NCBI GenBank assembly: GCA_965602905.1
Contig: CBFCZY010000016.1
Coordinates: forward strand, 2,280 to 66,279
DNA: 64,000 nt
Reading direction: 5' to 3'
Source of the DNA: an uncultured bacterium
Lineage (GTDB): Bacteria; SAR324; XYD2-FULL-50-16
Part shown: in pieces, positions 6,801-59,293 of the stretch
How positions within the stretch are numbered: the first letter of the stretch is position 1
How the letters are laid out: each line of letters begins with the position of its first letter
Notes under the pieces: generated by a model
What the model was told of the DNA's origin: nothing
Databases searched by the model: none
The model's input: the letters and a program-made list of their open reading frames with translations, nothing else
Program-made: the position numbers and the translations under genes

Positions 6801-6982
6801 TGAGTCATATCTCTGGCAGGGGTGTGGGCATGGATGCTGTGAAAAATGCAGTGGAAGAATGTGGCGGAACCATTGCGATCACAAGCCAATTGGGCAAAGG
6901 CACCATATTTGAGATCCAACTGCCCTTAAGGGTAAGAAGATTTGGGCAGGCCGCTTTCCCTAAAGAAAAGAAACTGGCCTAA
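3890..6982 (+). CDS. membrane sensor kinase with periplasmic loop, HAMP, GAF, HPt and C-terminal HATPase_c (CheA-like phosphotransfer architecture, no HisKA, no CheW domain)
   Basis: Two TM segments flank a roughly 250-aa loop. A HAMP-like segment precedes the GAF region. The HPt-like motif SLHTLKGNCASFGFTQVSALAHKIE is followed by HATPase_c N/G boxes (HLVKNAIDHGIE, DDGAGMD, GRGVGMDAV, GKGTIFEI). Confidence 0.7.
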   Translation: MKLKSMKSKSIRGKINFLLITISALFLGAMATVGWSYFQMWNNYKAVDNSRKLQIKIEAIRKNVDEARVIEGQFLHQKKDHLRDEFEERLGRALNDVAELIEDKQTPEMSPKLVAVEEVLDSYQMGFDKVASLYKNVGYSLIEGYRGRLKKNSDEINEVIVKLKDRAIMWNWMQVQLREKNYFQLQGAPQGGGQLALKNLLKSELQALKGKLTKKLGKNHKIVEPAGLLDGYISNFDRVRFYETEVRDTKQKFDAEMAALPQLLTSLEGEHRAQETQIFGQVKLLLTVITWALGGIFFGVVAYLFKISRWVGAEISQPLESITEASVAMAQGCVNKPLAFTTDDEIGRLATNFNLMQESVKEKIQSLEILNSLSEKMMGLSKNREILELSLDTLTEKFASKFDVKFGFAYLYNSKGQLRLKGKRDGGLSSRLPLQLAEPVGFVADAVESDQALVLKSDFKHHEDFYFLNDQVVVALPIQIQGESIGVLSLVIGSRDFVFDSEMKFLVNTLGRIISANLQNVQMMKQIKKHNQSLETKVKARTQDVMELLDNAGQGFLVFKKDYKIMPSYSKVCFNLLSGHMQENTTDLTGLKITELLFQKSDREMFTEFLNLIFDDYKKNSHGFHFLPTELNVGDKILESRFQPLMDESGELKVMVILSDITKEKSLAHEKLIKEENNRLLVQVVSDKTGTQIFLRETDKLFWWLQEGTATQFQQALVMRSLHTLKGNCASFGFTQVSALAHKIESSIQEKNPFDLAALERLRIDLQGLEAKFRDKVAELTELIPEFLKESDKLEIAPQKMEQFKLSLLTKVKEEHKEIVIEEFTSLLYQQVNKLLKGYPKMVQDVADSLGKEIEFSVEGGEVEADLNSLTPVFSNLGHLVKNAIDHGIEEYDTRIKLGKKEAGKLQISIYETEQNLILKITDDGAGMDPEKIRKSAVAKGILTEQSSKKLSEKEILPLIFHSGFTTKDSVSHISGRGVGMDAVKNAVEECGGTIAITSQLGKGTIFEIQLPLRVRRFGQAAFPKEKKLA

Positions 6983-12193: not shown

Positions 12194-13972
12194 ATGTTAA
12201 AAAAGGTACAGCTGATGATACAAGATTTAGAGCAAAAAGAGAAAATGGATTGGGTCCAGAGTTTTGAGCAGCTTCAAATTCTATTCAAGCCCATTGTAAA
12301 TACCCAAAGTGGTAAAATACATGCTGTAGAGTCCTCCATTGGTTCCATCTCAAAATTGGGGTTTTACAGCAGAAAAGAGCTTTTTTGCTTTGCTGAAGAA
12401 GAAGGCTATACAAAGGACCTTCACCATTGCCTGTTAAAAAAATCACTTAAAGGATTTAGCTCTCTCCACCCTGCCGGTGAACTAAAGCTATTTTACCCCT
12501 TAACCCTAGGTTTGGACGAAAGTAGCTGGCATGATTCTGTACAAGAGTTGGCCCAAGAATATAAAATTAAACTGCCAAATATTTGCATGGTCGCTGAAAG
12601 TGAAGAGTTAATCATAGACCCCTCCACGGTAAACCAATCGGGAATTTGTATCAGTGGTGAAGTGGGTTATTTTTCTAATTTTTTTGAAAAAGAACCTAAT
12701 TTTCAATATTTCCGCCTTACTCGAAACCTGTATATTCCAGCGCAAAAAAACCGAAAAAAACGTTTTTTTATGCAAAAACTTGTAGAAAATTGTGGCTACT
12801 TTGGGGTCTCGCTACTGGCTGTAGATGTGGAAACTAAGGGCGAAGCATTATTTTTAAAAGACTTAGGTTGTAACTACATTCAAGGTGAGGTTGTATCTCG
12901 GCCCTTAAGGCCAAGTGTAGAGAGGCCCTTAGAATTTGCCTTTATAGAGCAGGTTTATAACCAGTCTAAGCGGGAAAAGGAACAGAGATGCATACATTCT
13001 TTGGCAGAAGAGATTAAAGCTGTAGAGGCCATATCTGTAACTACCCCCGTTAGTGAGGTTTTGTCGAAGTTCCAGGCCCAAGAAGAGGTTAGCTTCTTTC
13101 CTGTTGTAAACGAAATTGGTGAGCCTCTAGGTTTGATTCGTGACCGAGAACTGAAAGCTTACGTCTATTCTCCCTTTGGTCACCAACTTTTAAAAAATAG
13201 AGGGATTGGCCTCGGGCTTGATGGCTTTATTACTCAGTGCCCTAAGGTAAACACCAACGAGAAGATTGAAGACATTTTAAATATCTTCGCTAATCAAAAT
13301 TGTGAAGATGGCATTTTAATTGTAGAAAATCAAAAGTACCGAGGTATGCTCAACGCCAATTCTTTGGTCCGCCTGATCAATGAAAAAAATCTCTTCCAAG
13401 CAAGGGATCAAAATCCCTTAAGTAAGCTTCCTGGGAATCAAGTGATCAACAACTATATTCAAAAGGTGCTTCAAGATAATTCTGAAACCAGTTATTTAAT
13501 CTATTTCGATTTTGATAATTTTAAACCCTTCAATGACTACTATGGCTTTCGCAAAGGCGACCGAGCTATTTTGCTTTTTGCGGAACTGATGCAGAAATTT
13601 ATTGCTTCAAGCGGTGGCTTTATAGGGCACATCGGTGGCGACGATTTTTTTGCAGGTTTGACAGGGGATGATTACGAGTCTGTAGCTAAAAAGATCGGCA
13701 AGCTTTTGCTTAAATTTGGCGAGGATGTAAAAAGTTTTTACGATCTTAATGACCGTAAACGAGGGTTCATAAAGGCTCTAGACCGAAATGGGCGGGAGCA
13801 AGATTTTCCTCTTTTGGGCGTTTCAGCGAGCCTGTTGCAGGTCTCACCTGCCAGCGGTTGTAGGTTTGAAGAGGTTGCCGATATCTTTGCCCCTATGAAA
13901 AAGTCTGCGAAAAGTAGCCCCGACCACTATGTTGCCGCTACTTTTTGGAGTCAGCCACAAACAAATCGATAG
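12194..13972 (+). CDS. EAL(degenerate)-CBS pair-GGDEF(GGDDF variant) c-di-GMP signalling protein
   Basis: The N-terminus is EAL-like (FKPIVNTQSGKIHAVESSIG ... VDVETKGEALFLKDLGCNYIQGEVVSRP). A CBS pair lies in the middle. The C-terminus is GGDEF-like (YLIYFDFDNFKPFNDYYGFRKGDRAI ... GHIGGDDFFAGL). Confidence 0.7.
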   Translation: MLKKVQLMIQDLEQKEKMDWVQSFEQLQILFKPIVNTQSGKIHAVESSIGSISKLGFYSRKELFCFAEEEGYTKDLHHCLLKKSLKGFSSLHPAGELKLFYPLTLGLDESSWHDSVQELAQEYKIKLPNICMVAESEELIIDPSTVNQSGICISGEVGYFSNFFEKEPNFQYFRLTRNLYIPAQKNRKKRFFMQKLVENCGYFGVSLLAVDVETKGEALFLKDLGCNYIQGEVVSRPLRPSVERPLEFAFIEQVYNQSKREKEQRCIHSLAEEIKAVEAISVTTPVSEVLSKFQAQEEVSFFPVVNEIGEPLGLIRDRELKAYVYSPFGHQLLKNRGIGLGLDGFITQCPKVNTNEKIEDILNIFANQNCEDGILIVENQKYRGMLNANSLVRLINEKNLFQARDQNPLSKLPGNQVINNYIQKVLQDNSETSYLIYFDFDNFKPFNDYYGFRKGDRAILLFAELMQKFIASSGGFIGHIGGDDFFAGLTGDDYESVAKKIGKLLLKFGEDVKSFYDLNDRKRGFIKALDRNGREQDFPLLGVSASLLQVSPASGCRFEEVADIFAPMKKSAKSSPDHYVAATFWSQPQTNR

Positions 13973-39264: not shown

Positions 39265-41589
39265 TTAGTTGGGACTATGGTAGTTAGTGAGAATTTGGTA
39301 TAACAATTGTGGTTTGACAGGTTTGGCTATATAGCCATTCATCCCACAGGCTAGGCAGGCTACTTTGTCTTCGGCAAAGGCATTGGCTGTCATGGCTACG
39401 ATGGGAATAGCAGGGTTCCTTACCGCATTTACCCCTGCACGGATGGCCTCGGTTGCCTCAAGTCCATTCATAACGGGCATTCTAATATCCATTAAAACCA
39501 GATCAAAGTCTTTTTTCGCTAAGATATCTAAGGCCTCGGCTCCATTTTCTGCAAAGCCCAGCTGAACCCCAACTCGGCTTAGCATCTTTTCAACCAGCAT
39601 TTTACTCAATTTGTTATCGTCTACGACCAACACAGTTAGGCCTGTTAAATCAATATGAGTTGGATCGACTTCTTTTCCTAGATGAGGGTCTTCTGTGGTG
39701 GGTAAAGTCAAAGGGAAACTAAATTGGCTCCCTTGGCCAAGCTGACTCACTAGATCTATTTTGCTACCCATTAGCTCTACTAAACGCTGGGAAATATTAA
39801 GGCCCAGACCTGTGCCGCCATATTTAAAATGAATATCCAAATCCGCTTGGGCAAAGCTTTTAAAAATCTTCTCTTGGGACTCAGTTGCAATGCCAATGCC
39901 TGTATCTATGACGGTAAATAGAAGGGTAACCTGTCCATTTTCTTCCCCTAAAGATTTTACATGCAAATCCACTCCCCCTTGGTGAGTGAATTTTAGAGAG
40001 TTGGAAAGAAGGTTGATCAAAATTTGATTCAGCCTAAGAGCGTCTCCCATTATAAATTGAGGCAGGTCAGGGGTAATGTTTACAGTAAAGCTCAGCCCCT
40101 TTGCATTAAACTCCTTGGCAAATAAGGACTCTAGAGACTTTAAAAAATGAGGTAAGTCAAAGGGGTGTTGGTCTATCTGTAGTTTCCCTGATTCAATTTT
40201 TGCGAGATCTAAGATGTCATTGATCAATTCCAAAAGGATTTGGGAGGATTGCAATACAATTTCTAAATTTTGGGTCTGGTCTTGGTCTAAGGGGCTGTCT
40301 AAGACCAAACTGGTCATGCCCATGATCGAGTTCATAGGGGTGCGTAGATCATGGCTCATTTTCGCTAGAAAATCAGATTTGGCTCTATTGGCGAGTTCAG
40401 CCTCATTTTTGGCCTGCAATAGATCTTTGGTGCGCTCGGTAACCCGTTGTTCTAATTTCTCATTCATTGTCTGCAATTGCGCCTCAATGTGCCTTTGCTC
40501 CTCTAGGCTAATGGACAATTGCTGTTTAGAGTCCTCTAGCCTTTTATAGGCCCTGCTACTGGCAATGGCCATAGCAAGGACAGGCGTGAGACTTAAAATT
40601 AGATTAAGGTAGTGGCTTTGGTGCTCAGGGTGCTGTAAGCCTGCAACCTCTAGTATAGCCAAGGGTTCTTCTTGGTAGGTGAGGGTAACTTGGAAACCCT
40701 TCTTGGTTATCAGATAAGATTTTGGCCAATTTTTAGGTTCATTGCTTGCTTCATTGGTTGCTTTAGGTGGCTTAGTGGTATTGGGCCAACCTTGGTACCA
40801 AAGAGGCGCCCCTTCAGACCAAGCCTGCAAGCTAATTTGCTGGGGGGCGATTAAAGACATGACCAGTTGAATCAATCGTTGGGCCAAGTCCTCTTCAGGT
40901 TGGTACCCCGCTAGACTGGTAAAGAGGTCCATCATCATAGCATATTCGGCTAATTTAACCGCCGATGATTTTTTAGTTTCTTTTAACTTTTTCCCAAGCT
41001 GTTTGTGTGTTCTTTCATCTAAAAGATGTTGAATTTTTAGTTTAAGGAAGCTGGTTCCAAGGGGAATTCGCAAAACAGGGATGTCTAAAAACTCACCAAA
41101 GGCAATTAGTTTTTCTTCAACATTGGGGTAGCAGAGACTATCAAAAAGCACCAAGATGCTGGTTGATTCTTTAAAGAACAATTGTGCCGTTTCTTGGTCG
41201 AAGCCCGTGCGAGAAATGTAATCTTGCCACTCGTCAATCATGCCTGCCGAATAGATATGGGCGCCCTGAGATAAGTAGTATTCACTTAGGCTTTCAGGGG
41301 CTAAGAGGTTGAAACAGTGGCCTGCAATGGAGCAAATTTGCACGTCAGGTTGCAAAAGTGATTCAGGTTTTAACTCGGCAACGCAGGCACTACTAATGAC
41401 AAGCGTATCCCCCTCATGGTCTTGAGCCTGCTCAAAAAGCGACTCTAATTTTTCCCGACCTTTACTAGGCTGGTCGTATTCTAAAGGCAGGCTAATATTT
41501 ACAAGGTCTGGATCTCCTAACTCCTCTAGGACTTGGGTCATTTCTCGTGATAGGTAACCGCAGGTCATAATACGAAGTGGCTCCTCCAT
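39265..41589 (-). CDS. hybrid histidine kinase with roughly 350-aa N-terminal domain of unknown function (possibly DUF1638-like, corrinoid-system associated), HisKA, HATPase_c, REC
   Basis: No TM segments. The N-terminal region is Cys-containing (MTCGY..., [20 protein letters not shown]). Coiled coil, then H-box [16 protein letters not shown], HATPase_c and REC (VLVVDDNKL...[11 protein letters not shown]). Its start abuts the upstream gene stop. Confidence 0.8.
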
Positions 41590-42624
41590 TTAGCCCTCTC
41601 CTAGTGGGTATTTCCCCCATTTGTGGGCAGCGGCAACAATTTGATGAAGGACAGAGTCTGAAACTTGCCAAGGGATTTCCCCGTGATTATCGGCCAAGAT
41701 AAAACCACCGCCCTGGCCTGCCTTGGTGATGCAGGCTTTTACATTTGCCTCAGTGGTGGCTTGGTCCCAGTTGCGCATCTCCACACCGTTTAGGGTGCCC
41801 AAGATCGAAATCTTATCTTTGCAAGTTTCTTTTAGAACGACCAGATCATCTTCCATGCTCGCTCCTAAAACCGCAGCGCCTGACTGGGCAATATCACCTG
41901 CAACGGCCAAGCTTCGGCCCGAAGCCAAGTGAGTGGCTACAGGGCCATTTATGGCGGCAATCGTTTTTTGGGCGACAATATAGCCTGTCTCTAAAAATAG
42001 CTGTCGTGGTATGATTGTCGGTGAGGCGATAGGGTCAAAATAACAAATAGCCGTTGCCCCTGCTGCTAGTTGAGCGTTGGCCCATGCAGTACTAAAGGCT
42101 TGGTTTTTTTCCATTAAGCGCCAGAAGACGGGCCTGTCTTCTAGCATTAATTGCAGGTAGCCCTCAAAACCCATTTGCATGACTGGAATAGAAAAGGGTG
42201 AGATCGCAACGGCGATGATGGGCGCTTCATCCCCTTTTTCTTTGATGATGCGGATGGATTCTAAAACCTCCATTAGTGGCCGTGAGTCTTCTACTGAAGG
42301 TGGTTGAAACTTCTCAAGATCATCCAGGGTAAAGATCGGCCTGCCAGCATTGGGTGGGCCATCGGTGCGAAAAAGAACATCCCCACCCATAGCTTGCGTT
42401 TCAATGGGAGCATAGAAAAAGGGGTAGTAGCAATCATGCTGGAATTTTTCTTTCATCCGCAATTGCCCCTCTGCGACCTGTGAACCTTTAGAGAAGTAGT
42501 CCTCAATGGAAAGATCTAGCTCTTTGGCCCCATGCATGGTCAAAAATAAAAACACAGGAACACGATCAGGTTCTTGGTGGCCAAGGGTTGTTAGCACTCG
42601 CTGTAAGGAAGTCATTTCGCTCAT
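41590..42624 (-). CDS. uroporphyrinogen decarboxylase (URO-D) family protein, MtaA/CmuA-like methylcobamide methyltransferase homolog
   Basis: 344 aa. The N-terminus LQRVLTTLGHQEPDRVPVF is typical of the URO-D/MtaA family. It overlaps the upstream corrinoid gene by 4 nt. Confidence 0.7.
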   Translation of the reverse strand: MSEMTSLQRVLTTLGHQEPDRVPVFLFLTMHGAKELDLSIEDYFSKGSQVAEGQLRMKEKFQHDCYYPFFYAPIETQAMGGDVLFRTDGPPNAGRPIFTLDDLEKFQPPSVEDSRPLMEVLESIRIIKEKGDEAPIIAVAISPFSIPVMQMGFEGYLQLMLEDRPVFWRLMEKNQAFSTAWANAQLAAGATAICYFDPIASPTIIPRQLFLETGYIVAQKTIAAINGPVATHLASGRSLAVAGDIAQSGAAVLGASMEDDLVVLKETCKDKISILGTLNGVEMRNWDQATTEANVKACITKAGQGGGFILADNHGEIPWQVSDSVLHQIVAAAHKWGKYPLGEG

Positions 42625-43262
42625 GGGGCCTCCAAAATTAATTTTTCAAGTGCGCCCACTACTTCTGAGGCCGTGCCTGCGGTTGCAGTGGCCCCAACTT
42701 CTTGCCAAAGATTTGGGTCAAGGCGAAAGGGAGCCCCGCCCACAAGGATCTTAATGGGGTAGTTTTCTTCCTTAAAATGCGCAACAAGTTGCCCAACGGC
42801 GAGGGCGGAAGGCAGCATTAATGCAGAGATCAGTAGGATTTCAATCTCTTCTTTTTGAACTCGATGGGCTAAGTCCTTTACCGCAACCCCAAGGCCAAAG
42901 TCTTCCACCTTGTAACCTGCGGCGCCCAAAGCGGACTGGACAATCCTTTTACCTAAACCATGGAAATCTTCCAAAACAGCAATGGCCATTTTTGGCTGTG
43001 TCGGTTTTTTCTGGGTCCCACTTGAGGCAAATTCGCCAATGATCTCTTCACAAATGCGCCCACTCATATAGAGCTGTGAAAGAGCGGCATCCCCATTTTC
43101 CCAGTCATTGCCAATGGACTCAAAGGCTTGAACCAATAAATGCTCTGCTTTTTCCTGAGAGTTTTTGGCAATGGCCTCATTAAGGATATTGCGAACCTGA
43201 ACTCTTTCAATATTGATCAGAGCTTCTTTTAGCTCTTCTATTTCAATGGATATTTGCACCAT
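42621..43262 (-). CDS. corrinoid protein: B12-binding_2 helical cap plus cobalamin-binding Rossmann domain
   Basis: DxHxxG motif (EDFHGLG), SxL (ISALML) and GG (ILVGGAPF) in canonical order and spacing. 213 aa. Confidence 0.8.
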   Translation of the reverse strand: MVQISIEIEELKEALINIERVQVRNILNEAIAKNSQEKAEHLLVQAFESIGNDWENGDAALSQLYMSGRICEEIIGEFASSGTQKKPTQPKMAIAVLEDFHGLGKRIVQSALGAAGYKVEDFGLGVAVKDLAHRVQKEEIEILLISALMLPSALAVGQLVAHFKEENYPIKILVGGAPFRLDPNLWQEVGATATAGTASEVVGALEKLILEAP

Positions 43263-43402: not shown

Positions 43403-43924
43403 TTATCGACGGTTCAAAATTCGACTTAGGGCAACAGGCGTGATGCCAAGGTAAAGAGCAATCTCCTTTTGGGGGATTTTTTCTAGCAGGTCAGGTGTTC
43501 TGTCTTTGATCAAATCAAAGCGTTCTTGGGCCGTGCAGCAAAGAAATTCGTATTCTCGTTGCTCTTTTTTCAAAGCCAGCTCTAAGAGAAAATTAAAGAG
43601 GGTTCCTGTAATTTCCTTTTCCTCTAAACCCAGCTTCATGAGGTGGGAAAAGTCGATTTGAATGAGTTCTGACTCTTCATAGCAAAGAAGCGAGAAGGAA
43701 TTCCCTTGGCCCTTGTATGCCGCCTTTAAGCTACCCATTACATCTCCAGGAAGTAAAAAGGACTTGATCATTTCCTTCCCTTCTAGGGTCAAATAGTAGG
43801 CTTTTAGTAACCCTTTTTGGATAAAGTATAGAGCTGTGTCTTGGTCCCCTTGCCGAAAAACATGGGCACCCTTTTCCATGAGTACAGGTTTCCCATATTC
43901 TTTTAGATAACCTTTAAAATCCAT
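43403..43924 (-). CDS. Crp/Fnr family transcriptional regulator (cNMP-binding plus C-terminal HTH; no FNR-type Cys cluster)
   Basis: cNMP-binding-like N-terminus. C-terminal HTH IALYLGITPVALSRILNRR. Confidence 0.7.
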   Translation of the reverse strand: MDFKGYLKEYGKPVLMEKGAHVFRQGDQDTALYFIQKGLLKAYYLTLEGKEMIKSFLLPGDVMGSLKAAYKGQGNSFSLLCYEESELIQIDFSHLMKLGLEEKEITGTLFNFLLELALKKEQREYEFLCCTAQERFDLIKDRTPDLLEKIPQKEIALYLGITPVALSRILNRR

Positions 43925-48771: not shown

Positions 48772-49944
48772 TTAGGTGCCGAGAGCCCAATAGGTATGGA
48801 CTAGTTCTTTGAATCCCTTAGCCTGAACAGTGCCCCGAGGCTCACAGGATATTTGATCCTTCACTAGTTCGTAAGTGGATTCCGAAATTAAGATCTGCCC
48901 ATCATTGGAACTGGCCTCTAGGCGAGCGGCCAAGTTCACAGGTGCGCCAACGATGGTATAATCCATACGGTGTTCCGACCCAAAATTCCCTACAACACAG
49001 TCCCCTGTGTTGACCCCAATCCGAATTCCGATACCCATTTCTTTGGCCTTATCTCGCATTTCTAAGGACATTAAAAGGCAGTTTATAGCATCTTCTTTTT
49101 CCCCACGGGACTCAGGGTCACCAAAAAAGATCATCACGCCATCACCAATAAATTTATCAATAGTAGCTCCATGGTTAAGGGCGATTTGAGCCATTTCATT
49201 AAGGTAGCTATTCATCCACAGGGTTAAATCAGGGAGATCCATCGATTCTGAGGTAGCTGTAAAATCCACGATATCAGAGAAAAAGACAGTTAGTTTTTTA
49301 AGGTTGGTTTCGATTTTAACATCCCTTATCCCTTCAAAGATCGAATCATAGATCTGAGGAGAAAGGTATTTTGATAATTTTGAGGCTAAAAGTTCAATTT
49401 GTATTTTCTTCTCTTTGATCACAGCCGATTTTTTATAAATGGTATAACCAACCATCATTAAGAATGAAAAAAGAGAAAGGGCGCAAAGGAAAGAGGTTAA
49501 AAGGTCTGTTTCAGGGATAAACTCAAAACCAGTTGTGACAACAGCAAGGCCCATCCCTAGGGCTAAGGCCAGGGCGCCTTTGGCAAACATCATTAAACCT
49601 GCAGAAATATTATTCATGCAAGCCATTGAAACTAGGGCCGTTGTAATCCACAGGGAAAAGGACATATGGCCAACACAAAAGCCAACACAGAGGGACTCAT
49701 ACAGAAAATTTCTTAATTCTGCCTGCTTAGAGTTGGAGCTATATTTTGCGAGGAGGTAAAAAATATGGGGGCAAAGAAAACAAAAGAGGACTAAAAGAAC
49801 CCAAGAGGTTACTTCCATTTCTCGAAAATATGCCGTTGGGGCCAAGATCACAAAACCAAAGAGATAACCAATAGTACGGTTTTGGTAGGCTAGTTTATAT
49901 AGCGGCCTACGGTAAAACTTGGTTTTAGATGTCGATGGATTCAT
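48772..49944 (-). CDS. membrane-anchored class III adenylate/guanylate cyclase
   Basis: Six N-terminal hydrophobic segments. The C-terminal CHD has VFFSDIVDFTATSE ... IGVNTGDCVVGNFG. Confidence 0.75.
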   Translation of the reverse strand: MNPSTSKTKFYRRPLYKLAYQNRTIGYLFGFVILAPTAYFREMEVTSWVLLVLFCFLCPHIFYLLAKYSSNSKQAELRNFLYESLCVGFCVGHMSFSLWITTALVSMACMNNISAGLMMFAKGALALALGMGLAVVTTGFEFIPETDLLTSFLCALSLFSFLMMVGYTIYKKSAVIKEKKIQIELLASKLSKYLSPQIYDSIFEGIRDVKIETNLKKLTVFFSDIVDFTATSESMDLPDLTLWMNSYLNEMAQIALNHGATIDKFIGDGVMIFFGDPESRGEKEDAINCLLMSLEMRDKAKEMGIGIRIGVNTGDCVVGNFGSEHRMDYTIVGAPVNLAARLEASSNDGQILISESTYELVKDQISCEPRGTVQAKGFKELVHTYWALGT

Positions 49945-51663: not shown

Positions 51664-53106
51664 ATGACCAATTCTTCTCCCCTTGAGTATGACTACTCTG
51701 TTGCCAAAGGTTTTATCATCTCCGCTCTTGTCTGGGGTGCAGTGGGTATGACTGTAGGTGTCTGGATCGCTTTAGAGTTAGCATTTCCAGTCCTTAACTT
51801 CGATACCCCCTACTTGAGTTTTAACCGACTGCGGCCGCTTCACACTAATGCTGTGATCTTTGGTTTTACCCTGTCTGGTATTTTTGCCAGTTGGTATTAT
51901 ATCTCACAACGAGTGTTGAAAGTTCGCATGGTTTACCCTGGCCTCGCAAAGTTCCATTTAGTATTATACAACTTAATCATTGTCCTTGCTGCAATTACGC
52001 TTTTAATGGGGGTAACCTCTTCTAAAGAGTATGCTGAGTTACAGTGGCCTCTTGATATTCTTGTAGTGGTCATGTGGCTTAGTTGGGGTGCCCATATCTT
52101 TGCCATGGCAGGGGCTAGGAAAGAAAAAACCCTTTATGTTTCTATTTGGTATTACATGGCCTCCTTTTTAGGGGTGGGCATGCTTTATATCTTTAACAAC
52201 TTCGCTATCCCTACAAGGCTTTACTCAGGGGTCGGCAGTGTTATGCATTCGGTTTCTGCTTATTCGGGGACAAACGACGCTAATGTGCAGTGGTGGTATG
52301 GCCACAATGCTGTGGCCTTTGTTTTTACCGTGCCTATCATCGCCATGGCTTACTACTTCCTCCCAAAGCAAGTAAACCAACCTATTTGGAGCTACAAGCT
52401 TTCTCTTTGGAGCTTCTGGGGTTTGATTTTTCTCTACCTTTGGGCTGGCCCACACCATATGTTATACTCAACTATTCCTGATTGGGTGCAAACCTTAGGT
52501 ATGCTCTTTTCCCTCGTGTTAATCATTCCCAGTTGGGGCTCTATGATTAACTTGATGCTCACAGTGAGTGGAAAGTGGGAACAACTGAAAACAGATCCAC
52601 TTTTAAAATTTATGGTGATTGGTTCTACTTTCTATGGTTTTTCAACCTTAGAAGGTTCTGTGCAAGCCATTAAGTCCGTGAATGCTCTGGCGCACTTCGG
52701 TGATTGGATTATTGGGCATGTTCACAATGGTGCACTGGGCTGGGTAGCCTTTATGATCATGGCTGCAATCATGCACATGGTGCCTCGAATTTGGAATACA
52801 GAACTCTATTCCTTGAAGATTGCAAACCAGCAATTTTGGCTGCAAACCATTGGCATTGTCTTTTACTTTTCCAGCATGTGGGTAGCAGGAATAACCCAAG
52901 GTATGATGTGGCGAGCTACAGACCAATGGGGCAACCTAGCCTATAGTTTCTTAGATACAGTTAAGGTCTTGTACCCCTACTGGAGTCTTCGGGCATTCGG
53001 CGGAACTCTGTTCTTAATAGGTTTCTTTATGTTTGCTTACAATATTATTAAAACCATCCAGTTAGCGCCTAAGGCCAGCTTGGATAGTCAACCTGCAACA
53101 GCTTAA
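51664..53106 (+). CDS. ccoN: cbb3-type cytochrome c oxidase subunit I
   Basis: 480 aa, 12 TM, with heme/Cu His ligands in conserved contexts (HTNAVIFGF, WYGHNAVAF, HHM). Confidence 0.9.
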   Translation: MTNSSPLEYDYSVAKGFIISALVWGAVGMTVGVWIALELAFPVLNFDTPYLSFNRLRPLHTNAVIFGFTLSGIFASWYYISQRVLKVRMVYPGLAKFHLVLYNLIIVLAAITLLMGVTSSKEYAELQWPLDILVVVMWLSWGAHIFAMAGARKEKTLYVSIWYYMASFLGVGMLYIFNNFAIPTRLYSGVGSVMHSVSAYSGTNDANVQWWYGHNAVAFVFTVPIIAMAYYFLPKQVNQPIWSYKLSLWSFWGLIFLYLWAGPHHMLYSTIPDWVQTLGMLFSLVLIIPSWGSMINLMLTVSGKWEQLKTDPLLKFMVIGSTFYGFSTLEGSVQAIKSVNALAHFGDWIIGHVHNGALGWVAFMIMAAIMHMVPRIWNTELYSLKIANQQFWLQTIGIVFYFSSMWVAGITQGMMWRATDQWGNLAYSFLDTVKVLYPYWSLRAFGGTLFLIGFFMFAYNIIKTIQLAPKASLDSQPATA

Positions 53107-53117
53107 TAGGTGAAAAA

Positions 53118-53795
53118 ATGTTAAATAAATTTTTCTCATACATCGAACAGCGACCTTTCCACTTTGGCTTGGCTATCTTTTTAGTCATTGTCGTTGGTGG
53201 GGTTGTGGAAATCTTTCCCAGCTTCGTGGAAAACTCCCGACCAAACCAAGGTGAAAAGCCCTATACTGCTTTGCAGTTAGCAGGTAGACAGATTTATATT
53301 CAAGAATCATGTAACGCCTGTCACTCCCAGTTAATCAGGCCTTTTAAGTCGGAAACCGATCGCTATGGCAAATTCTCCACCAGTGGAGAATATGCTTACG
53401 ACCGCCCCTTCCTTTGGGGTTCCAAACGTACTGGGCCAGATCTTTTACGTGTGGGCAACTATAGAACGACCGACTGGCACGAAAATCATTTTCGCAACGC
53501 TGCCTCTGTTTCCCCTGGAACCAATATGCCTAATTTCCCTTGGCTATTTGAATGGAAGGTGGATACCGACACAGTATATGCAGAAATGTACACCATCAAA
53601 GGGGTCTTTAATACTCCCTACGACCAGGAAGGAATGCCCCCACTTGGGAGTCTAGAAGATCTGAAAAAACATATCATGGCTGAAGCTGAGTTGATTGCCG
53701 AAGACATGAAAGGGCAAGACGTAAAGGATGCCATTGCAAAAGGGGATATCCCCCAAGTGGTAGCCTTAATTAGTTACTTAAACAGTTTAAAGTGA
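53118..53795 (+). CDS. ccoO: cbb3-type cytochrome c oxidase subunit II (monoheme)
   Basis: N-terminal TM and a CNACHSQ heme motif. Confidence 0.9.
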   Translation: MLNKFFSYIEQRPFHFGLAIFLVIVVGGVVEIFPSFVENSRPNQGEKPYTALQLAGRQIYIQESCNACHSQLIRPFKSETDRYGKFSTSGEYAYDRPFLWGSKRTGPDLLRVGNYRTTDWHENHFRNAASVSPGTNMPNFPWLFEWKVDTDTVYAEMYTIKGVFNTPYDQEGMPPLGSLEDLKKHIMAEAELIAEDMKGQDVKDAIAKGDIPQVVALISYLNSLK

Positions 53796-53799
53796 GGTT

Positions 53800-53982
53800 G
53801 TGATGGAAATGGATTGGAGACAGTGGCTTTATGCCGCATTTGTATTTTCCATGCTGGTGAGCATGTTGGGCTTTGCCGCCTACCTGTGGCTTGATAAAGG
53901 CCGAGCCAGCAGAATTGAGCAAGATGGGATGATCCCCTTGCAGGATGAACCCGTTCACCCTCTTCTTAAAACTTCGGAGTAA
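53800..53982 (+). CDS. ccoQ: cbb3 oxidase small subunit CcoQ/FixQ-like
   Basis: 60-aa single-TM protein between ccoO and ccoP. Confidence 0.6.
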   Translation: MMEMDWRQWLYAAFVFSMLVSMLGFAAYLWLDKGRASRIEQDGMIPLQDEPVHPLLKTSE

Positions 53983-53985
53983 CCC

Positions 53986-54888
53986 ATGTTTGCTGCAAAT
54001 TTTTCTATTGATAGTGAATCCCAGATCACCTTGATTGCGGCTATCGCAATTGCTGGGGCTGTAGCTTGGCTCTTTTTGTTTATTATGAAAAGAATCAAGA
54101 ACCATAAAGAATTAGAAGGTGAAATTTTAGACCATAAATGGGATGGGATTGGTGAACGTAACAACCCTGCCCCTAAGGTGATGCATGTGATCATGCTTTC
54201 CACCTTTTTGTTTACTGTTTGGTACGCTACCATGGGTTTTCCCTTGGGTTCCTTTTCGCAGATCACCCAGTATAATACTGAGGTGAAAGAATACAAAGAA
54301 ACCTTTGATCAAAATTGGTCAGAGGCCAGTGAAGATGAACTCAGTGCTTTAGGCGAGAGTATTTTTAATTCCAAGTGTGTCGCTTGCCACGGTTATACTG
54401 GTGAAGGCCAAGACGGCAAGGCCGCCAACCTAATTGAGTTTGGATCAGTTAAGCATGTAGTCTATGTGTTAAAAAATGGTTCCCAAGGAATGGGTAAGCT
54501 CACTCCTTCTATGCCTGCCTTCTATATGATGTTAGGTGCTACTCCTGAGGAGAAAGAACAGAACGCCGCTGATGTGGCAGCCTATGTTGTCTCTCTTTCA
54601 AACCGTACACCAAGCGCTGGAAACCCAGAAGCTGGCAAGACAGTCTTTGATACAAACTGTTCGGCCTGCCATGGTTTTGATGGTAAAGGAAACGGCATCG
54701 GTGGTTCTATCCCCAATATGGCTGCAAACCTTACAGAGTACGGTACAGCACCCTATGTTGAAGCCATAATCAGAAATGGTAAAAAAGGTTTGATTGGCGA
54801 AATGCCTGGCTTTGAAGCTGAGGGAACTCTTTCTAACTTACAATACCAAGCCTTGTCCCTTTATGTGGCCAAGGGATTGGTAGAATAA
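53986..54888 (+). CDS. ccoP: cbb3-type cytochrome c oxidase subunit III (diheme)
   Basis: N-terminal TM and two CxxCH motifs (CVACHG, CSACHG). Confidence 0.9.
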   Translation: MFAANFSIDSESQITLIAAIAIAGAVAWLFLFIMKRIKNHKELEGEILDHKWDGIGERNNPAPKVMHVIMLSTFLFTVWYATMGFPLGSFSQITQYNTEVKEYKETFDQNWSEASEDELSALGESIFNSKCVACHGYTGEGQDGKAANLIEFGSVKHVVYVLKNGSQGMGKLTPSMPAFYMMLGATPEEKEQNAADVAAYVVSLSNRTPSAGNPEAGKTVFDTNCSACHGFDGKGNGIGGSIPNMAANLTEYGTAPYVEAIIRNGKKGLIGEMPGFEAEGTLSNLQYQALSLYVAKGLVE

Positions 54889-54901
54889 TCAAGGATACAT
54901 T

Positions 54902-55030
54902 ATGTTTAAATTGCAAGGTCTTGGTGGGTTTGTGCTCCTCGTTGTTGTTTTGGTTTCGCTCTGGGCTGGTCTTGTTACCACCGCTGTGAACAACCAAGCA
55001 GACAACGCCACCAACTATATTGAGAAGTAG
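54902..55030 (+). CDS. small single-TM protein (42 aa) between ccoP and ccoG, not in ORF track
   Basis: ATG at 54902 and TAG at 55028..55030. It encodes MFKLQGLGGFVLLVVVLVSLWAGLVTTAVNNQADNATNYIEK. It fills the gap exactly. Confidence 0.35.
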   Translation: MFKLQGLGGFVLLVVVLVSLWAGLVTTAVNNQADNATNYIEK

Positions 55031-55038
55031 GCTTTAAA

Positions 55039-56397
55039 ATGGCTGGGCTAAAGGGCAGCTATGTAGCAAAGCGCTACTGGGTTTTCGCTTTAATCACCTT
55101 GGTGATTGGGGCCATTCCCTTTGTGAAGCTTGGGGAATACCACCTGTTGCTCTTAAGCTTTAATCATGGTCGCTTTGAGCTTTTAGGTGCCAATTTTGAT
55201 GCCCAAGAGCTTTACTTCATTCCCCTTTTAATGATTTTAGGCTTTATCTTCCTCTTTTTTCTAACCAGCTTGGGTGGGAGAATCTGGTGTGGGTGGTTCT
55301 GCCCCCAAACCATTTTCCGCAGCCTTTTCCGTGATGGAATTCAGGGCCTTTTGTTGGGCTTGAGTCGTTGGAAGTGGAAAGACCGACCGCCTAAGTCTGA
55401 ATCCTTTAGCCAAAAGATTAGATTAGGCCTTTCCTACCTTATTTTACTGGTTTTAGCGGCGGTAGCCTCTGCCAATATGCTTTGGTATTTTGTCACTCCT
55501 GCTGAATTTTTTGCAGCTTTTACTGCCCCCCTAGACCATCAAATTTTACTTGGGCTTTGGGCCGGTAGCAGTCTTTTTCTCTGGCTGGATATCGGCTTTT
55601 GGGGGGAATCCTTTTGCGCTGTCGCTTGCCCCTACGCTAGGATTCAATCGGTTTTATTTGATGAAGATACCTTACTGGTTCTCTACGATGAAAAGAGAGG
55701 GAATAATAGTGATGGCTCCATGGGCAACAGAAACCTTGCCAAAGAGAAGGATGACTCTGGTGATTGTATTGGTTGCGACCTTTGTGTAAAGGTTTGCCCA
55801 GCAGGCATTGATATCCGTGAAGGTTTGCAGCTACCCTGTATTGAGTGTTTAGAGTGTGTTGATGCCTGTGCTCCTATTATGGCCAAAAAGGGCAAGGAAA
55901 ACTTAATCCACTGGGCAAGTAACAAATCCTTAAAGGGTGAAAAACTTCATCTTTTCAGGCCTAGAACCATTTTCTATTTTGTGGTTATGGCGGCCTTTGT
56001 GGCCGTTCTGTTAGGCTTAAGCGGTAAGCAGGTGGAGGTTTTAGCAAACTTAAATAGAGCGACAGGGCTTTATGCTATTAAGCCAGAACGGGTTGAAAAT
56101 CACTATATCCTGCTCTTAACCAATAAGACTTCAGAGACGAAAAGAGTAACCATTTTGGTAAAAAGTGAAGGCAATATCACATTAATCCGCCCAAAAAAGG
56201 CGGTGTTTTTAAAGCCTAAAGGCCGAGTGAAAAAGGTCTTGGTACTGGCTACAAAAGACAACCTAAACCCCAATGGGGAAAAGGATAAATCCTTGCCTAT
56301 TCGGCTCCTATTGCAAAGCGAAGCGGGAGTAGAATTGAATCAAATGATGAGTATATTTATTTATCCCTCGACACAGGAACTAAAGGAAAAACGATGA
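55039..56397 (+). CDS. ccoG: cbb3 assembly ferredoxin CcoG/FixG
   Basis: TM segments plus two 4Fe-4S motifs (CAVACPYARIQS, CIGCDLCVKVCP). Confidence 0.85.
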   Translation: MAGLKGSYVAKRYWVFALITLVIGAIPFVKLGEYHLLLLSFNHGRFELLGANFDAQELYFIPLLMILGFIFLFFLTSLGGRIWCGWFCPQTIFRSLFRDGIQGLLLGLSRWKWKDRPPKSESFSQKIRLGLSYLILLVLAAVASANMLWYFVTPAEFFAAFTAPLDHQILLGLWAGSSLFLWLDIGFWGESFCAVACPYARIQSVLFDEDTLLVLYDEKRGNNSDGSMGNRNLAKEKDDSGDCIGCDLCVKVCPAGIDIREGLQLPCIECLECVDACAPIMAKKGKENLIHWASNKSLKGEKLHLFRPRTIFYFVVMAAFVAVLLGLSGKQVEVLANLNRATGLYAIKPERVENHYILLLTNKTSETKRVTILVKSEGNITLIRPKKAVFLKPKGRVKKVLVLATKDNLNPNGEKDKSLPIRLLLQSEAGVELNQMMSIFIYPSTQELKEKR

Positions 56398-56903
56398 AAC
56401 AATGGAATTATTGGCCCTATATCACAGCGAGCTTTCTCGCCGTCGCCTTTATGATGACAGGCATGACGATATTTATTGCCGTAACAAAAGTACCTGTTGA
56501 ATTAGATGGCCGTTTTCAAATGAGCTACCAAGATTTTAATGAGAGCTATCTTGATTTTCAAAATCAGAGAGATGCCTTTGATCAGGCAGGCTATAAGATC
56601 AAAATGGAACTGCCAAAGTCGCTTGCAGCAGGCCAGTTTAATTTGTTGGTTACAGGCCCATCCAAGGTAGAAACTGCCAGCTTAGTTATCAGTCGGCCAG
56701 CTACAAACTTAGACCAACTTGGACCATTTAAATTACTTGGAGACGGGTCTAGTTTTGCCCATGAAATAACCTTACCCTTGACTGGCTGTTGGGTATTTGA
56801 TGTTAAAATGAAAGTAAATGACTGGATGATTTTTGAGCGTTCTTCCTTATTTTTCAACGATGCTGGTGAGCTTATAAAAAACCGTACCTGTGGTAGAAAA
56901 TGA
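56394..56903 (+). CDS. ccoH: FixH/CcoH-like protein
   Basis: 169 aa with an N-terminal TM. It overlaps ccoG and ccoI by 4 nt each. Confidence 0.6.
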   Translation: MKQWNYWPYITASFLAVAFMMTGMTIFIAVTKVPVELDGRFQMSYQDFNESYLDFQNQRDAFDQAGYKIKMELPKSLAAGQFNLLVTGPSKVETASLVISRPATNLDQLGPFKLLGDGSSFAHEITLPLTGCWVFDVKMKVNDWMIFERSSLFFNDAGELIKNRTCGRK

Positions 56904-59293
56904 ACCAAGCCTTAACTAGCAAATTAGTTTGTGACCATTGCCTATTGCCCATGATCCAAGAGGAGGCCATCATCCATGATGCTGCTGCCTTCTGTTGTCA
57001 CGGTTGCAAAGGCGCTTGGGACATGATCCATGCTGCTGGTTTGGCTTCTTACTATGAAAAACGAGAGCCCACCCCAGGCCTTGCTGTCAGCTTGCCTGAT
57101 TTACTTCCAGAAAGTGCAAATTTTACTGCTACTGAATTCCAAGAGACACAATCTACCCAGCTACTAATTACAGGCATCCACTGCGCTGCTTGCGTCTGGT
57201 TGAATGAAGCCTATTTGCTTAAATTGGATGGGGTGATTTCTGCAAAGGTGAACTATAGTAACCATCGAGCAACCATTGAGTGGGAGCCCGCAAAGACAGA
57301 CCTTGCAACCATCATTCATGCCCTTGCTAGTTTAGGGTATAGGGCTATGTATTACGATCCTCAGCAAAGCGAAAAGATGTTAGCCTCTCAAAGGTTGCTG
57401 GATTACCGCCGTTTTATCTTAGGCCTTTTTGCCATGATGAATATTATGTGGCTGGCTATTGCCGAATGGGCAGGATATTTTAGTGGCATGGAGCAAAATG
57501 TGAAAGATCTGCTTCACCTGGCCCAATTTACCTTGGCTACCCCTGTTGTTTTTTACTCGGGTAAGCCCTTTTTTACAGGCGCCATTGCAGGGCTTAAAAA
57601 CGGAATTTTAGGGCTGGATTTTCAAATCGCCTTTTCCACCTTTTTAATCTGGGGCTATAGTAGCTATGCTTCTGTAACCCAAACGGGCAGACCCTATTTT
57701 GAGTCGGCAGTGATGCTGATCACTTTTGTACTTGGCGGGAAATTCATAGAGCGTATTTCCCTAAAAAACATCTATGAATTTTCCAGCCATCTTGGGAACC
57801 ATCTCAAGGGCTTTGCCACTAGAATTGAAAAAAATCAAAGATCGCAGATTGCAGCCGTTTCCATTGAAATTGGCTGGGTTTTGGAAGCTAAGGCAGGGGA
57901 GCGGATTTTAGCCGATGGCATCATTGCCCAAGGTGCAAGCGACTTTGATGAAAGCTTTTTAACAGGGGAGTCAAAAGCCCAGTTTAAAAATCAAGGAGGC
58001 GAAGTTTTGGCTTCCAGCCTAAATTTGAGTGGATTAGTGCAATATAGGGTAACGAAAAAACCAGATGAATCTGTGGCCGCAAAGATCGCAGACCTTGTTG
58101 ACCTAGCCACCAACTCCAAACCACCGATGCAGCAAAGAGCAGACAAAATTGCTCGTGTTTTTGTACCCCTAGTTTTAGTACTAGCCACCTTAAATGGCTG
58201 GATTTGGGGGTGGCATGAAGGCAACTTTGAGGCTGGATTGATCCAGTTTATTGCCCTGTTAGTCATTGCCTGCCCCTGTGCTTTAAGCTTAGCTACGCCC
58301 ATTGCCTATTTGATTGGCATCAAGGAAGCCGCAAAAAAGGGCATTTTGTTTCGCAAAGCTTCCGTTATTGAAGACTTGAGCCAAGCTGAAGAATTATATT
58401 TAGATAAAACAGGCACCTTAACCGAGGGCAAGCCCAAGGTGATCCAAACATGGGGCGAAAGCCATGGTCCCTTACTCTTTGAAATGGTTTCAGGTTCACA
58501 TCATCCCTTATCCAGAGCCATTGTAGATTTTTTACCTAAATCCACAGAGTTGCAGGGCTTAGGCCTAGAGGAAATAGCAGGCAGAGGGCTAAGGGCCGAA
58601 CACAAAGGCCAAAATTACTTCCTTGGAAGTTTGGATTGGTTGAAAGAAGTTTGTGAGCTACCAGATGAGGCCCGTGTGTTCGCAAACCAACAGTTGGAAC
58701 TAGGTCGCAGTTTAGTCGCTTACGGCAAATCAGAAGTAAAGGTTATCTTTAGCTTGGAAGACCAAATCAAACCTGATCTTAATCTGACTTTGCAAAAACT
58801 AAAGGAACAGGGACTTAATTTATCCCTCTTGAGTGGTGATGCTAAGGCCCCCAGTGAAGCAGTAGCGGGCAAGGTTGGGATTAAAAATGTAATTGCTCCC
58901 TCCAGTCCTGAGGCAAAATTAGAGGTGATCTGTGAGGCTCAAAAGCGGGGCCCCGTGATCATGGTCGGTGATGGCATTAATGATAGCCCTGCCTTGGTCC
59001 AAGCCGACGTAGGGATCTCTATAGGCTGCGGCACCCAGACAGCCATTGCAGCCAGTGACTTGGTGCTTTTAGGTGACGATTTAAAAGGTCTTTTCCAAGC
59101 AAGGGTTATAGCTTCTAAAGTAGGTAGGCTAGTAAAACAAAACTTAGGGATTTCTTTAGGCTATAATATCCTCGCCCTTTCCTTGGCCTTTTTAGGCCTA
59201 GTTAACCCTCCCTTAGCCGCTGCAGCCATGTCACTTTCCAGCCTTTTGGTGGTGGGGAATGCATGGTTTTTCGGTGGAACTCAATTCAGGTAA
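56900..59293 (+). CDS. ccoI: copper-translocating P1B-type ATPase CcoI/FixI
   Basis: N-terminal Cys-rich domain, CPC motif (IACPCAL), DKTGTLT, and MVGDGINDSPAL hinge. Confidence 0.9.
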   Translation: MNQALTSKLVCDHCLLPMIQEEAIIHDAAAFCCHGCKGAWDMIHAAGLASYYEKREPTPGLAVSLPDLLPESANFTATEFQETQSTQLLITGIHCAACVWLNEAYLLKLDGVISAKVNYSNHRATIEWEPAKTDLATIIHALASLGYRAMYYDPQQSEKMLASQRLLDYRRFILGLFAMMNIMWLAIAEWAGYFSGMEQNVKDLLHLAQFTLATPVVFYSGKPFFTGAIAGLKNGILGLDFQIAFSTFLIWGYSSYASVTQTGRPYFESAVMLITFVLGGKFIERISLKNIYEFSSHLGNHLKGFATRIEKNQRSQIAAVSIEIGWVLEAKAGERILADGIIAQGASDFDESFLTGESKAQFKNQGGEVLASSLNLSGLVQYRVTKKPDESVAAKIADLVDLATNSKPPMQQRADKIARVFVPLVLVLATLNGWIWGWHEGNFEAGLIQFIALLVIACPCALSLATPIAYLIGIKEAAKKGILFRKASVIEDLSQAEELYLDKTGTLTEGKPKVIQTWGESHGPLLFEMVSGSHHPLSRAIVDFLPKSTELQGLGLEEIAGRGLRAEHKGQNYFLGSLDWLKEVCELPDEARVFANQQLELGRSLVAYGKSEVKVIFSLEDQIKPDLNLTLQKLKEQGLNLSLLSGDAKAPSEAVAGKVGIKNVIAPSSPEAKLEVICEAQKRGPVIMVGDGINDSPALVQADVGISIGCGTQTAIAASDLVLLGDDLKGLFQARVIASKVGRLVKQNLGISLGYNILALSLAFLGLVNPPLAAAAMSLSSLLVVGNAWFFGGTQFR

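Follow-up and report, generated by a model that had tools for sequence, protein, structure and literature searches.

What would a cobalamin-binding protein and a methyltransferase-like enzyme have to do with a histidine kinase? This question is raised by three minus-strand open reading frames (ORFs) at positions 39265..43262 of the window, i.e., the whole stretch of 64,000 nucleotides of contig CBFCZY010000016.1 (assembly GCA_965602905.1) from an uncultured SAR324 bacterium that was analyzed here. The first gene (42621..43262) encodes a corrinoid (B12-binding) protein of 213 amino acids, the second (41590..42624) an MtaA-like protein of the URO-D family of 344 amino acids, and the third (39265..41589) a soluble hybrid histidine kinase of 774 amino acids with the predicted architecture DUF1638-helix-GAF-HisKA-HATPase_c-REC. 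The coordinates in the ORF list agree exactly with those of the original prediction, made from the letters of the window, in which B12-based sensing was suggested as an input to kinase signaling. Sequence comparisons and a structural model now lend strong comparative support to B12 chemistry as a signaling input: the trio is conserved, its output domains are swapped, and DUF1638 is linked to corrinoid proteins in other systems. The three genes probably specify a single cytoplasmic sensory device that reads B12 chemistry.

The coupling of the three genes was read from the sequence and is confirmed as a real observation. The stop codon of the corrinoid gene and the start codon of the URO-D gene share an ATGA overlap at 42621..42624 (minus strand; '...CCC CAT GAG C...'). 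The URO-D stop codon abuts the start codon of the kinase gene within TAAATG at 41587..41592 (minus strand; '...GGC TAA ATG GAG...'), and an AGGAG-like site is located immediately 5' of this junction. Both features, the overlap and the abutment at 41589/41590, are thus present as had been described. An identical 4-nucleotide overlap between the corrinoid and URO-D genes was seen in six related loci (L001, L003, L005, L008, L009, and L012), and at the junction of the URO-D and sensor genes of relatives the genes overlap by 4 to 47 nucleotides.

The same arrangement is found far beyond the window. A species scan, for which one genome per species was searched with the URO-D alignment, identified carriers of this URO-D subfamily in at least 563 species-representative genomes labeled with about 12 phyla; the taxa of carriers are given here by record label. 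These labels include Desulfobacterota, Chloroflexota, Gamma-, Beta-, and Alphaproteobacteria, and SAR324, as well as Bacteroidota, Nitrospirota, Verrucomicrobiota, Planctomycetota, Spirochaetota, Firmicutes, Riflebacteria, and Cloacimonadota. The zetaproteobacterium Mariprofundus, found outside the species scan, also carries the trio. Among the species-representative genomes listed, no trio is more than 61% identical to that of the window.

For the analysis of synteny, 80 species-representative loci were fetched, of which 76 were evaluable downstream of the URO-D gene. The corrinoid gene is situated directly upstream of the URO-D gene in 79 of the 80 loci, L041 being the exception, and two seeming misses were frameshift artefacts. 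A homolog of the sensor is encoded directly downstream in 75 of the 76 evaluable loci. Sixty-three of these sensors contain DUF1638, which is accompanied by GAF at 56 loci and followed by the end of the contig or ORF at 7, and the other 12 are GAF-only sensors. At 4 further loci the contig ends within 400 nucleotides, and a single locus (L066) has room for a sensor gene and none was present. The order corrinoid gene, URO-D gene, DUF1638 signaling gene was observed at URO-D identities of 97%, 74%, 65%, and about 60%, and was seen in Mariprofundus aestuarium, Ca. Thiodiazotropha taylori, an 'Aminicenantes'-labeled genome, and Anaerolineales HSG25. In the relatives examined, the trio genes overlap or abut and the flanking genes are unrelated.

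The reverse test gave a matching result: two divergent sensors retrieved by exhaustive HMMER searches have a corrinoid/URO-D pair upstream (L093-L096). The original prediction had left it to be seen whether the pair is ever syntenic with kinases in other genomes, and both directions of the survey show that it is. With the same order in dozens of unrelated contexts, the linkage of the trio is not due to chance. A third sensor retrieved in the reverse test, that of L097, is an orphan of the DUF1638-PAS type. Upstream of it is a 42-amino-acid ORF (4883..5011) that ends in 'AVHIWGHYPLDW' and overlaps the start of the sensor by 11 nucleotides; this ORF is the scar of a URO-D C terminus and exemplifies decay of the module. 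The locus of a gammaproteobacterial symbiont (L053) contains two corrinoid genes, one before (4337..4984) and one after (6113..6784) the URO-D gene, and the sensor gene is located further downstream of the second.

Whereas the pair is constant, the outputs connected to it are not. In a set of 54 full-length sensors taken from species genomes, 50 of which had a detectable DUF1638, the output domain HATPase_c was found in 39, HisKA in 26, HisKA_2 in 3, GGDEF in 11, and EAL and SpoIIE in a single protein each; REC (9 proteins), PAS (7), and Hpt (3) domains were also present. Because histidine kinase, GGDEF, and SpoIIE outputs replace each other while the B12 pair is retained, the pattern is the one expected of an input device. 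The GAF-only sensors of Desulfobacterales and magnetotactic Nitrospirota have likewise retained the corrinoid/URO-D pair. They consist of a helix-GAF protein that ends either in a kinase core or in a small, conserved Cys/His-rich tail, 'LPICxxCKxIRDDKGYW...FSHxICxxC', as in L019 (6075..6797), L032 (6096..6860), and other Desulfobacterales. A large kinase-REC gene is often located directly upstream of the corrinoid gene in GAF-only loci. Helix-GAF is the sole sensor part found in every variant of the module, and the constant core is hence composed of the corrinoid protein, the URO-D protein, and helix-GAF, to which DUF1638 is a frequent but dispensable addition.

The assignment of the first gene product as a canonical cobalamin-binding corrinoid protein holds. 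It comprises a four-helix cap (Pfam B12-binding_2, 36.7 bits, cut-off 23) and a Rossmann-type B12-binding domain (Pfam B12-binding, 60.4 bits, cut-off 32.1), so that its B12 motifs exceed the model thresholds in both domains. The motifs D99-x-H101-x-x-G104, S146-x-L148, and G175-G176 that had been pointed out in the window show a conservation of at least 90% at every position across 75 family members, and the same is true for the methyltransferase-type cap motif W54...LSQxYMxGxxCE. Its nearest solved relatives are MtmC (3ezx), the Desulfitobacterium hafniense corrinoid protein 4jgi, and MttC. All named NCBIfam equivalogs score the protein far under their cut-offs, as illustrated by TIGR02370 (78.3 bits, cut-off 215.3). 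The light-sensing signature of CarH-type proteins is composed of GxxW, EH, GxxH, and GxxxP (PMC11796333), and its first three elements were compared. G51xxW54 is present, EH is replaced by L64-Y65, of which Y65 is at least 90% conserved, and GxxH is replaced by E98-D-F-H101. As two of the four signature elements (EH and GxxH) are absent, identity as a CarH-type photoreceptor was rejected.

The second gene product belongs to the URO-D family over its full length (PF01208, 164 bits). Its assignment to the MtaA/CmuA type, made previously, stands as far as the family and the closest models and structure are concerned and fails at the level of the active site. The protein reaches 95.1 bits with TIGR01463 (MtaA/CmuA; cut-off 235.4) and 97.4 bits with PRK06252 (cut-off 244), and the closest solved structure is MtaA (4ay7, 42 bits). 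In the alignment to 4ay7, the zinc-ligand His is retained as H232, but Ala234 and His314 occupy the positions of the two ligand cysteines. No variation was seen among 40 family members at H232, A234, D312, H314, and E316; His314 forms part of an 'NHGE' motif similar to the 'GHG' of true UroD, and the other site reads H232-L-A234. Identity as the uroporphyrinogen decarboxylase HemE was rejected given a score of 45.3 bits against the equivalog cut-off of 302.95 of TIGR01464. More than 3400 homologs exist, the best 120 of which are 56-97% identical. Identities to homologs labeled with many phyla amount to 57-61%, and the mean column identity of the subfamily is 72% (40 sequences, labeled with many phyla). 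Since both MtaA zinc cysteines are absent across the family, the protein is not a canonical MtaA/CmuA enzyme; it represents a distinct and very strongly constrained subfamily that differs from the thiol-methylating MtaA.

No methyltransferase 1 (MT1) component had been recognized near the pair, and indeed a scan of 39 large ORFs from all parts of the 64-kb window detected neither an MT1-type methyltransferase nor a RamA-like activator. In the scanned ORFs and in the annotated loci of relatives, the trio is accompanied by no MT1, methyltransferase 2 (MT2), MtaB, MttB, pterin-binding methyltransferase, RamA, or transporter, so that the corrinoid protein has a single partner, of the URO-D type, and not an MT1 and an MT2. 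The premise that MT1 is missing is unsafe, however, since enzymes of the URO-D family can themselves be substrate:corrinoid (MT1) methyltransferases, as in O-demethylase systems. Identity as a split MetH was rejected, no pterin-binding or homocysteine-binding domain being encoded beside the trio in the window ORFs or the related loci.

The third gene product was correctly recognized as a cytoplasmic hybrid kinase. HisKA (residues 403-468, 73.9 bits) and HATPase_c (515-629, 83.5 bits) form the kinase core at 39703..40383 and are followed by a REC domain (653-767, 93.5 bits) at 39289..39633, all on the minus strand and above the Pfam thresholds. The H-box SHDLRTP at residue 412 and the G-boxes DTGIG at 562 and GTGLG at 592 are intact. 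Since the kinase lacks a transmembrane-like segment, i.e., a hydrophobic stretch long enough to span the membrane, it is considered cytoplasmic. According to Pfam, it contains no Hpt domain, and the only Hpt domain found in the window is part of an unrelated ORF (3890..6982).

In the first 350 residues of the kinase, no standard sensor domain had been recognized. This view needs to be revised, since relatives of the protein point to DUF1638 and its modeled structure to GAF. Residues ~1-190 (41020..41589, minus strand) score 17.9-21.2 bits with Pfam DUF1638 (PF07796), for which the cut-off is 27. Because 35 of the 36 aligned N-terminal segments of relatives match DUF1638 (best E value 9.5e-17), this part is probably a divergent alpha/beta DUF1638 domain, with membership by transitive homology. 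Three cysteines (C10, C69, and C92) are near-invariant in the DUF1638 part of the sensor, and a fourth at position 38, present in 55 of 62 sequences, is Tyr in the clade of the window. An AlphaFold2 model of residues 1-354 (predicted local distance difference test score, 89.8) contains an alpha/beta part (~1-178), a long helix (180-226), an alpha+beta part (232-318), and an exit helix (321-353). According to this model, residues ~195-350 (40540..41007, minus strand) comprise the long helix and a GAF domain, from which a helix leads into the kinase core. A word-indexed homolog search with residues 1-354 gave no matches, and an exhaustive HMMER search with the 354-residue sensor retrieved 1045 cluster representatives (784 at E<=1e-10), nearly all of which align over the whole region. 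The module is located at the protein N terminus in 150 of the 150 representatives listed, the total lengths of which range from 331 to 1685 amino acids. The region is thus not an unrelated sensor, which would have counted against the original prediction; its first half is assigned to a family with links to corrinoids, and the presence of GAF in its second half calls for some caution.

DUF1638 is the only domain of unknown function that has been genetically tied to the function of corrinoid proteins in other systems (Price 2018, PMC5764234). Together with a RamA-like activator, it is required for the split B12-dependent methionine synthase of Phaeobacter inhibens (Price 2018, PMC5764234), and in Ruegeria pomeroyi its induction coincides with that of corrinoid-dependent demethylation (PMC12478193). 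In marine bacteria, it thus matters genetically for corrinoid-dependent methionine synthesis and glycine-betaine demethylation (PMC5764234, PMC12478193). These phenotypes, the only ones known for DUF1638, fit a domain that engages corrinoid proteins. By analogy to a role in corrinoid recharging, the Cys-rich DUF1638 of the kinase may contact the cobalt center or service its redox state.

Taken together, the results are explained most simply if the pair is the input of the signaling protein and not its regulated target: the pair does not vary, the module that receives its signal is specific to it, the outputs can be exchanged, and no catabolic partner is co-conserved. In the mechanism that we propose, the corrinoid protein would hold a His-ligated cobamide, and the MtaA-like URO-D protein would act on the bound cofactor, most likely by methyl transfer to or from a small molecule. 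The state of the cofactor would then be set jointly by the availability of this small molecule and by oxidants. Candidate states are methyl-Co(III), Co(I), and an oxidized, inactive Co(II), to which oxidants would divert the cofactor; both the transfer reaction and the identity of the state that is sensed are deduced from the nature of the components. The DUF1638-helix-GAF module might read the state through contact with the corrinoid protein. In MetH and corrinoid proteins, a change in the state of cobalt goes hand in hand with His-on/His-off switching and domain rearrangement, and a coupling of this type would provide a plausible recognition handle for the sensor. The signal would proceed via the post-GAF helix to the HisKA/HATPase core and alter autophosphorylation, followed by phosphotransfer to the REC domain of the kinase itself and then to a phosphorelay partner encoded elsewhere.

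A more specific version of this mechanism, which we regard as quite possible without calling it probable, is a B12 sensor that does not depend on light. The URO-D protein would reversibly methylate the cobamide, and the distribution over methyl-Co(III), Co(I), and Co(II) would be read by DUF1638-GAF and passed on to the outputs. This distribution would act as a chemical comparator, the quantities compared being a methyl donor/acceptor pair and oxidants, for example O2, N2O, or NO. Reading might involve a direct cysteine-cobalt contact, or C10, C69, and C92 might together build a metal or Fe-S site, and the outputs would be a phosphorelay, c-di-GMP, or a phosphatase in many hundreds of bacterial species.

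Several points weigh against a sensory device built around the B12 pair. A small ligand might be recognized by the GAF domain without help from the pair, which would then be a regulated target and not the input. The URO-D protein has no MtaA Cys ligands, and its role as a methyltransferase is putative. The DUF1638 region of the kinase itself remains under the Pfam cut-off, and the fourth family cysteine is lost in its clade. Furthermore, DUF1638 is dispensable in about 16% of the evaluable loci, and none of the 150 representatives listed has the sensor fused to a corrinoid or URO-D protein.

In the most serious alternative, the pair serves metabolism or repair as a small set of enzymes, the DUF1638-GAF kinase is its dedicated regulator, which responds to a ligand of the GAF domain and controls expression of the pair, and adjacency reflects co-regulation. 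Catabolic operons commonly adjoin their own two-component regulators, GAF domains are classic small-molecule binders, and URO-D-family enzymes and a corrinoid protein carry out real methyl transfers in methanogens and acetogens. However, GGDEF cyclases or SpoIIE phosphatases are frequent outputs in place of transcription control, the sensor gene follows the pair in translational coupling instead of being divergent, and a second methyltransferase, an activator, or a transporter is never co-conserved; DUF1638, in addition, has a corrinoid-linked function of its own. The lack of a catabolic pathway beside the trio, together with its occurrence in hosts such as Mariprofundus, which is an obligate lithotroph, was counted in favor of the sensory device, and we consider a mere regulator of the pair unlikely. 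The same conserved coupling bears on fortuitous adjacency of unrelated genes. Its only basis is the prior that neighboring genes need no functional link, and it is opposed by order and coupling in 75 of 76 evaluable loci with about 12 phyla by label and unrelated flanks, which leaves it with a negligible probability.

Other alternatives retain the B12 pair as a sensor and differ in the signal. Light might photolyse bound methylcobalamin, whose Co-C bond is photolabile; the sensor would then respond to the cofactor without its methyl group, and recovery in the dark would come from re-methylation by the URO-D protein. A dedicated re-methylating enzyme would account for the URO-D partner. B12-binding domains are established photoreceptors in CarH, AerR, and photocobilins (PMC11796333, PMC10979010). 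This scenario is made distinctly unlikely by the absence of EH and GxxH from the corrinoid protein, two of the four CarH signature elements, and by the many hosts labeled as taxa of dark anoxic habitats, including Syntrophomonadaceae, Smithella, Syntrophales, groundwater Chloroflexi, and deep-sediment Desulfobacterales. Of the signals considered in the original prediction (a methyl donor, the redox or ligation state of cobalamin, and light), light is the least favored. The trio might also report the supply of cobamide, with the apo and holo forms of the corrinoid protein binding the sensor differently. Regulation of B12 availability is widespread, a B12-binding protein that stands alone might well function as a receptor, and no B12 riboswitch or any other Rfam family was found in the window. 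Such a supply sensor would nevertheless leave unexplained both the obligatory, coupled enzyme with its 72% column identity and the presence of a Cys-rich DUF1638 linked to corrinoid recharging, and it is judged very improbable.

Several known systems share features with the sensory device proposed here. MtaC/MtaA pairs, which are known from methanol, methylamine, or methylthiol:CoM systems and bacterial O-demethylases, combine, like the trio, a two-domain His-on corrinoid protein with a partner of the URO-D fold; MtmC (3ezx), 4jgi, and MtaA (4ay7) are the closest structures, and the 'DPxxSP' region is retained in the URO-D protein. The two differ in the zinc site, which is HxC...C in MtaA, where it activates the thiol acceptor, and HxA...H in the trio family, in the scores of the corrinoid and URO-D proteins far under the NCBIfam cut-offs, and in the lack of a co-encoded second methyltransferase or activator. 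The third conserved gene of the trio is a signaling gene, not a catabolic one. Another link is provided by the split MetH of P. inhibens and R. pomeroyi, where a DUF1638 gene is found beside, and functionally tied to, a gene for a cap plus B12-binding protein (PMC5764234, PMC12478193). There, a separate DUF1638 protein supports an enzyme, and the partners bind pterin and homocysteine, whereas in the trio DUF1638 is N-terminal in kinases or cyclases, is fused to GAF, and occurs with a URO-D-type enzyme, with no RamA-like gene found nearby.

A B12 domain perceives the signal also in CarH/LitR, AerR/PpaA, photocobilins, and photoglobin-associated B12 domains, and some B12 photoreceptors are fused to GGDEF or GAF (PMC11796333, PMC8717448). 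In these photoreceptors the B12 domain is fused to the output or oligomerizes directly with it, whereas that of the trio is a separate protein. They use adenosylcobalamin, carry the GxxW/EH/GxxH/GxxxP signature, and need no enzyme partner, in contrast to the methyltransferase-type cap (LSQxYMxG), the absence of EH and GxxH, and the invariable pairing with a URO-D protein in the trio. A closer parallel in layout may be drawn to H-NOX systems. In H-NOX/HnoK operons, a stand-alone cofactor protein controls the adjacent histidine kinase or GGDEF protein. As in the trio, a small soluble cofactor protein shares an operon with a cytoplasmic kinase or cyclase that is presumably regulated by direct contact. 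The trio differs in that its cofactor is a cobamide and not haem, an enzyme acting on the cofactor protein is an obligatory third part, and the DUF1638-GAF receiver is module specific. The methanol regulator of Eubacterium limosum was rejected as a relative, being an unrelated MEDS-type system. A full-text literature search, with most subscription journals outside its reach, returned no description of the trio, and none of the DUF1638 papers that it returned deals with signaling. The earlier statement that no such arrangement has been characterized is therefore in agreement with the literature searched.

The trio is not embedded in a conserved neighborhood. A Crp-family regulator had been noted upstream, and a Crp-like gene is indeed present (43403..43924, minus strand, 173 amino acids) that encodes a clear cyclic nucleotide monophosphate-binding domain and gives a partial helix-turn-helix match (19.9 bits, cut-off 27). 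However, this gene is not conserved with the trio; apart from the window, it was seen only in contigs of 97% identity, so that its position is incidental and it was rejected as a part of the module. An ORF-free gap of 553 bp (38713..39264) separates the trio kinase from the next gene. The kinases of the closest relatives (L003 and L005) have 918-919 amino acids as compared to 774 in the window. The gap contains no remnant of a lost domain, and the kinases of L003 and L005 simply carry a second REC domain.

The gene directly downstream of the trio encodes a 7TMR-DISM hybrid histidine kinase (36358..38712, minus strand). A counterpart with 42% identity is encoded directly upstream of the trio in L003, the URO-D protein of which is 74% identical. 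The link to this kinase may be conserved in the clade of the window and could mark a phosphorelay partner.

The remainder of the window is unusually densely populated with signaling genes (3890..6982, 9253..11856, 12194..13972, 21405..23381, 29036..30154, and 48772..49944), the types being a HAMP-GAF-Hpt-HATPase protein, a dCache-PAS hybrid kinase, an EAL-CBS-GGDEF protein, a second 7TMR-DISM kinase, a methyl-accepting chemotaxis protein, and a MASE2 adenylate cyclase. A cbb3-type oxidase cluster (51664..59293, plus strand) encodes CcoN (COX1), FixO, FixP, a FixG-like 4Fe-4S protein, and a P-type heavy-metal ATPase. The cluster suggests a microaerobic lifestyle and, together with the many signaling proteins, is in line with such a lifestyle in a chemical gradient. 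Also present are a gene for a secreted protein of 599 amino acids that consists almost entirely of MORN-like 'YxGxFxxGxxxGxG' repeats (34365..36164, plus strand) and one for a protein with a type VI secretion system Tle1-like phospholipase effector domain (30517..31953, minus strand, 189 bits). A neighboring gene of the window is 77% identical to one of a SAR324 metagenome-assembled genome.

The components of the trio derive from known superfamilies; what would be new is an input of two-component or c-di-GMP signaling that consists of a corrinoid protein plus its own enzyme, which is not known from any characterized system. Known B12-based regulation proceeds via riboswitches or light-driven photoreceptors. 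If the proposed mechanism is true, the trio would represent a third mode, in which the redox and methyl chemistry of a cobamide is linked to phosphorelays and c-di-GMP, and hence a new class of signal perception. It would also provide the first assigned molecular role for DUF1638. The three proteins are soluble and were described as small, so that this hypothesis is directly testable in vitro. The module is common in sulfur oxidizers, iron oxidizers, sulfate reducers, magnetotactic bacteria, methanotrophs, and syntrophs, i.e., in inhabitants of redox gradients and sediments, and may therefore control behavior at oxic-anoxic interfaces.

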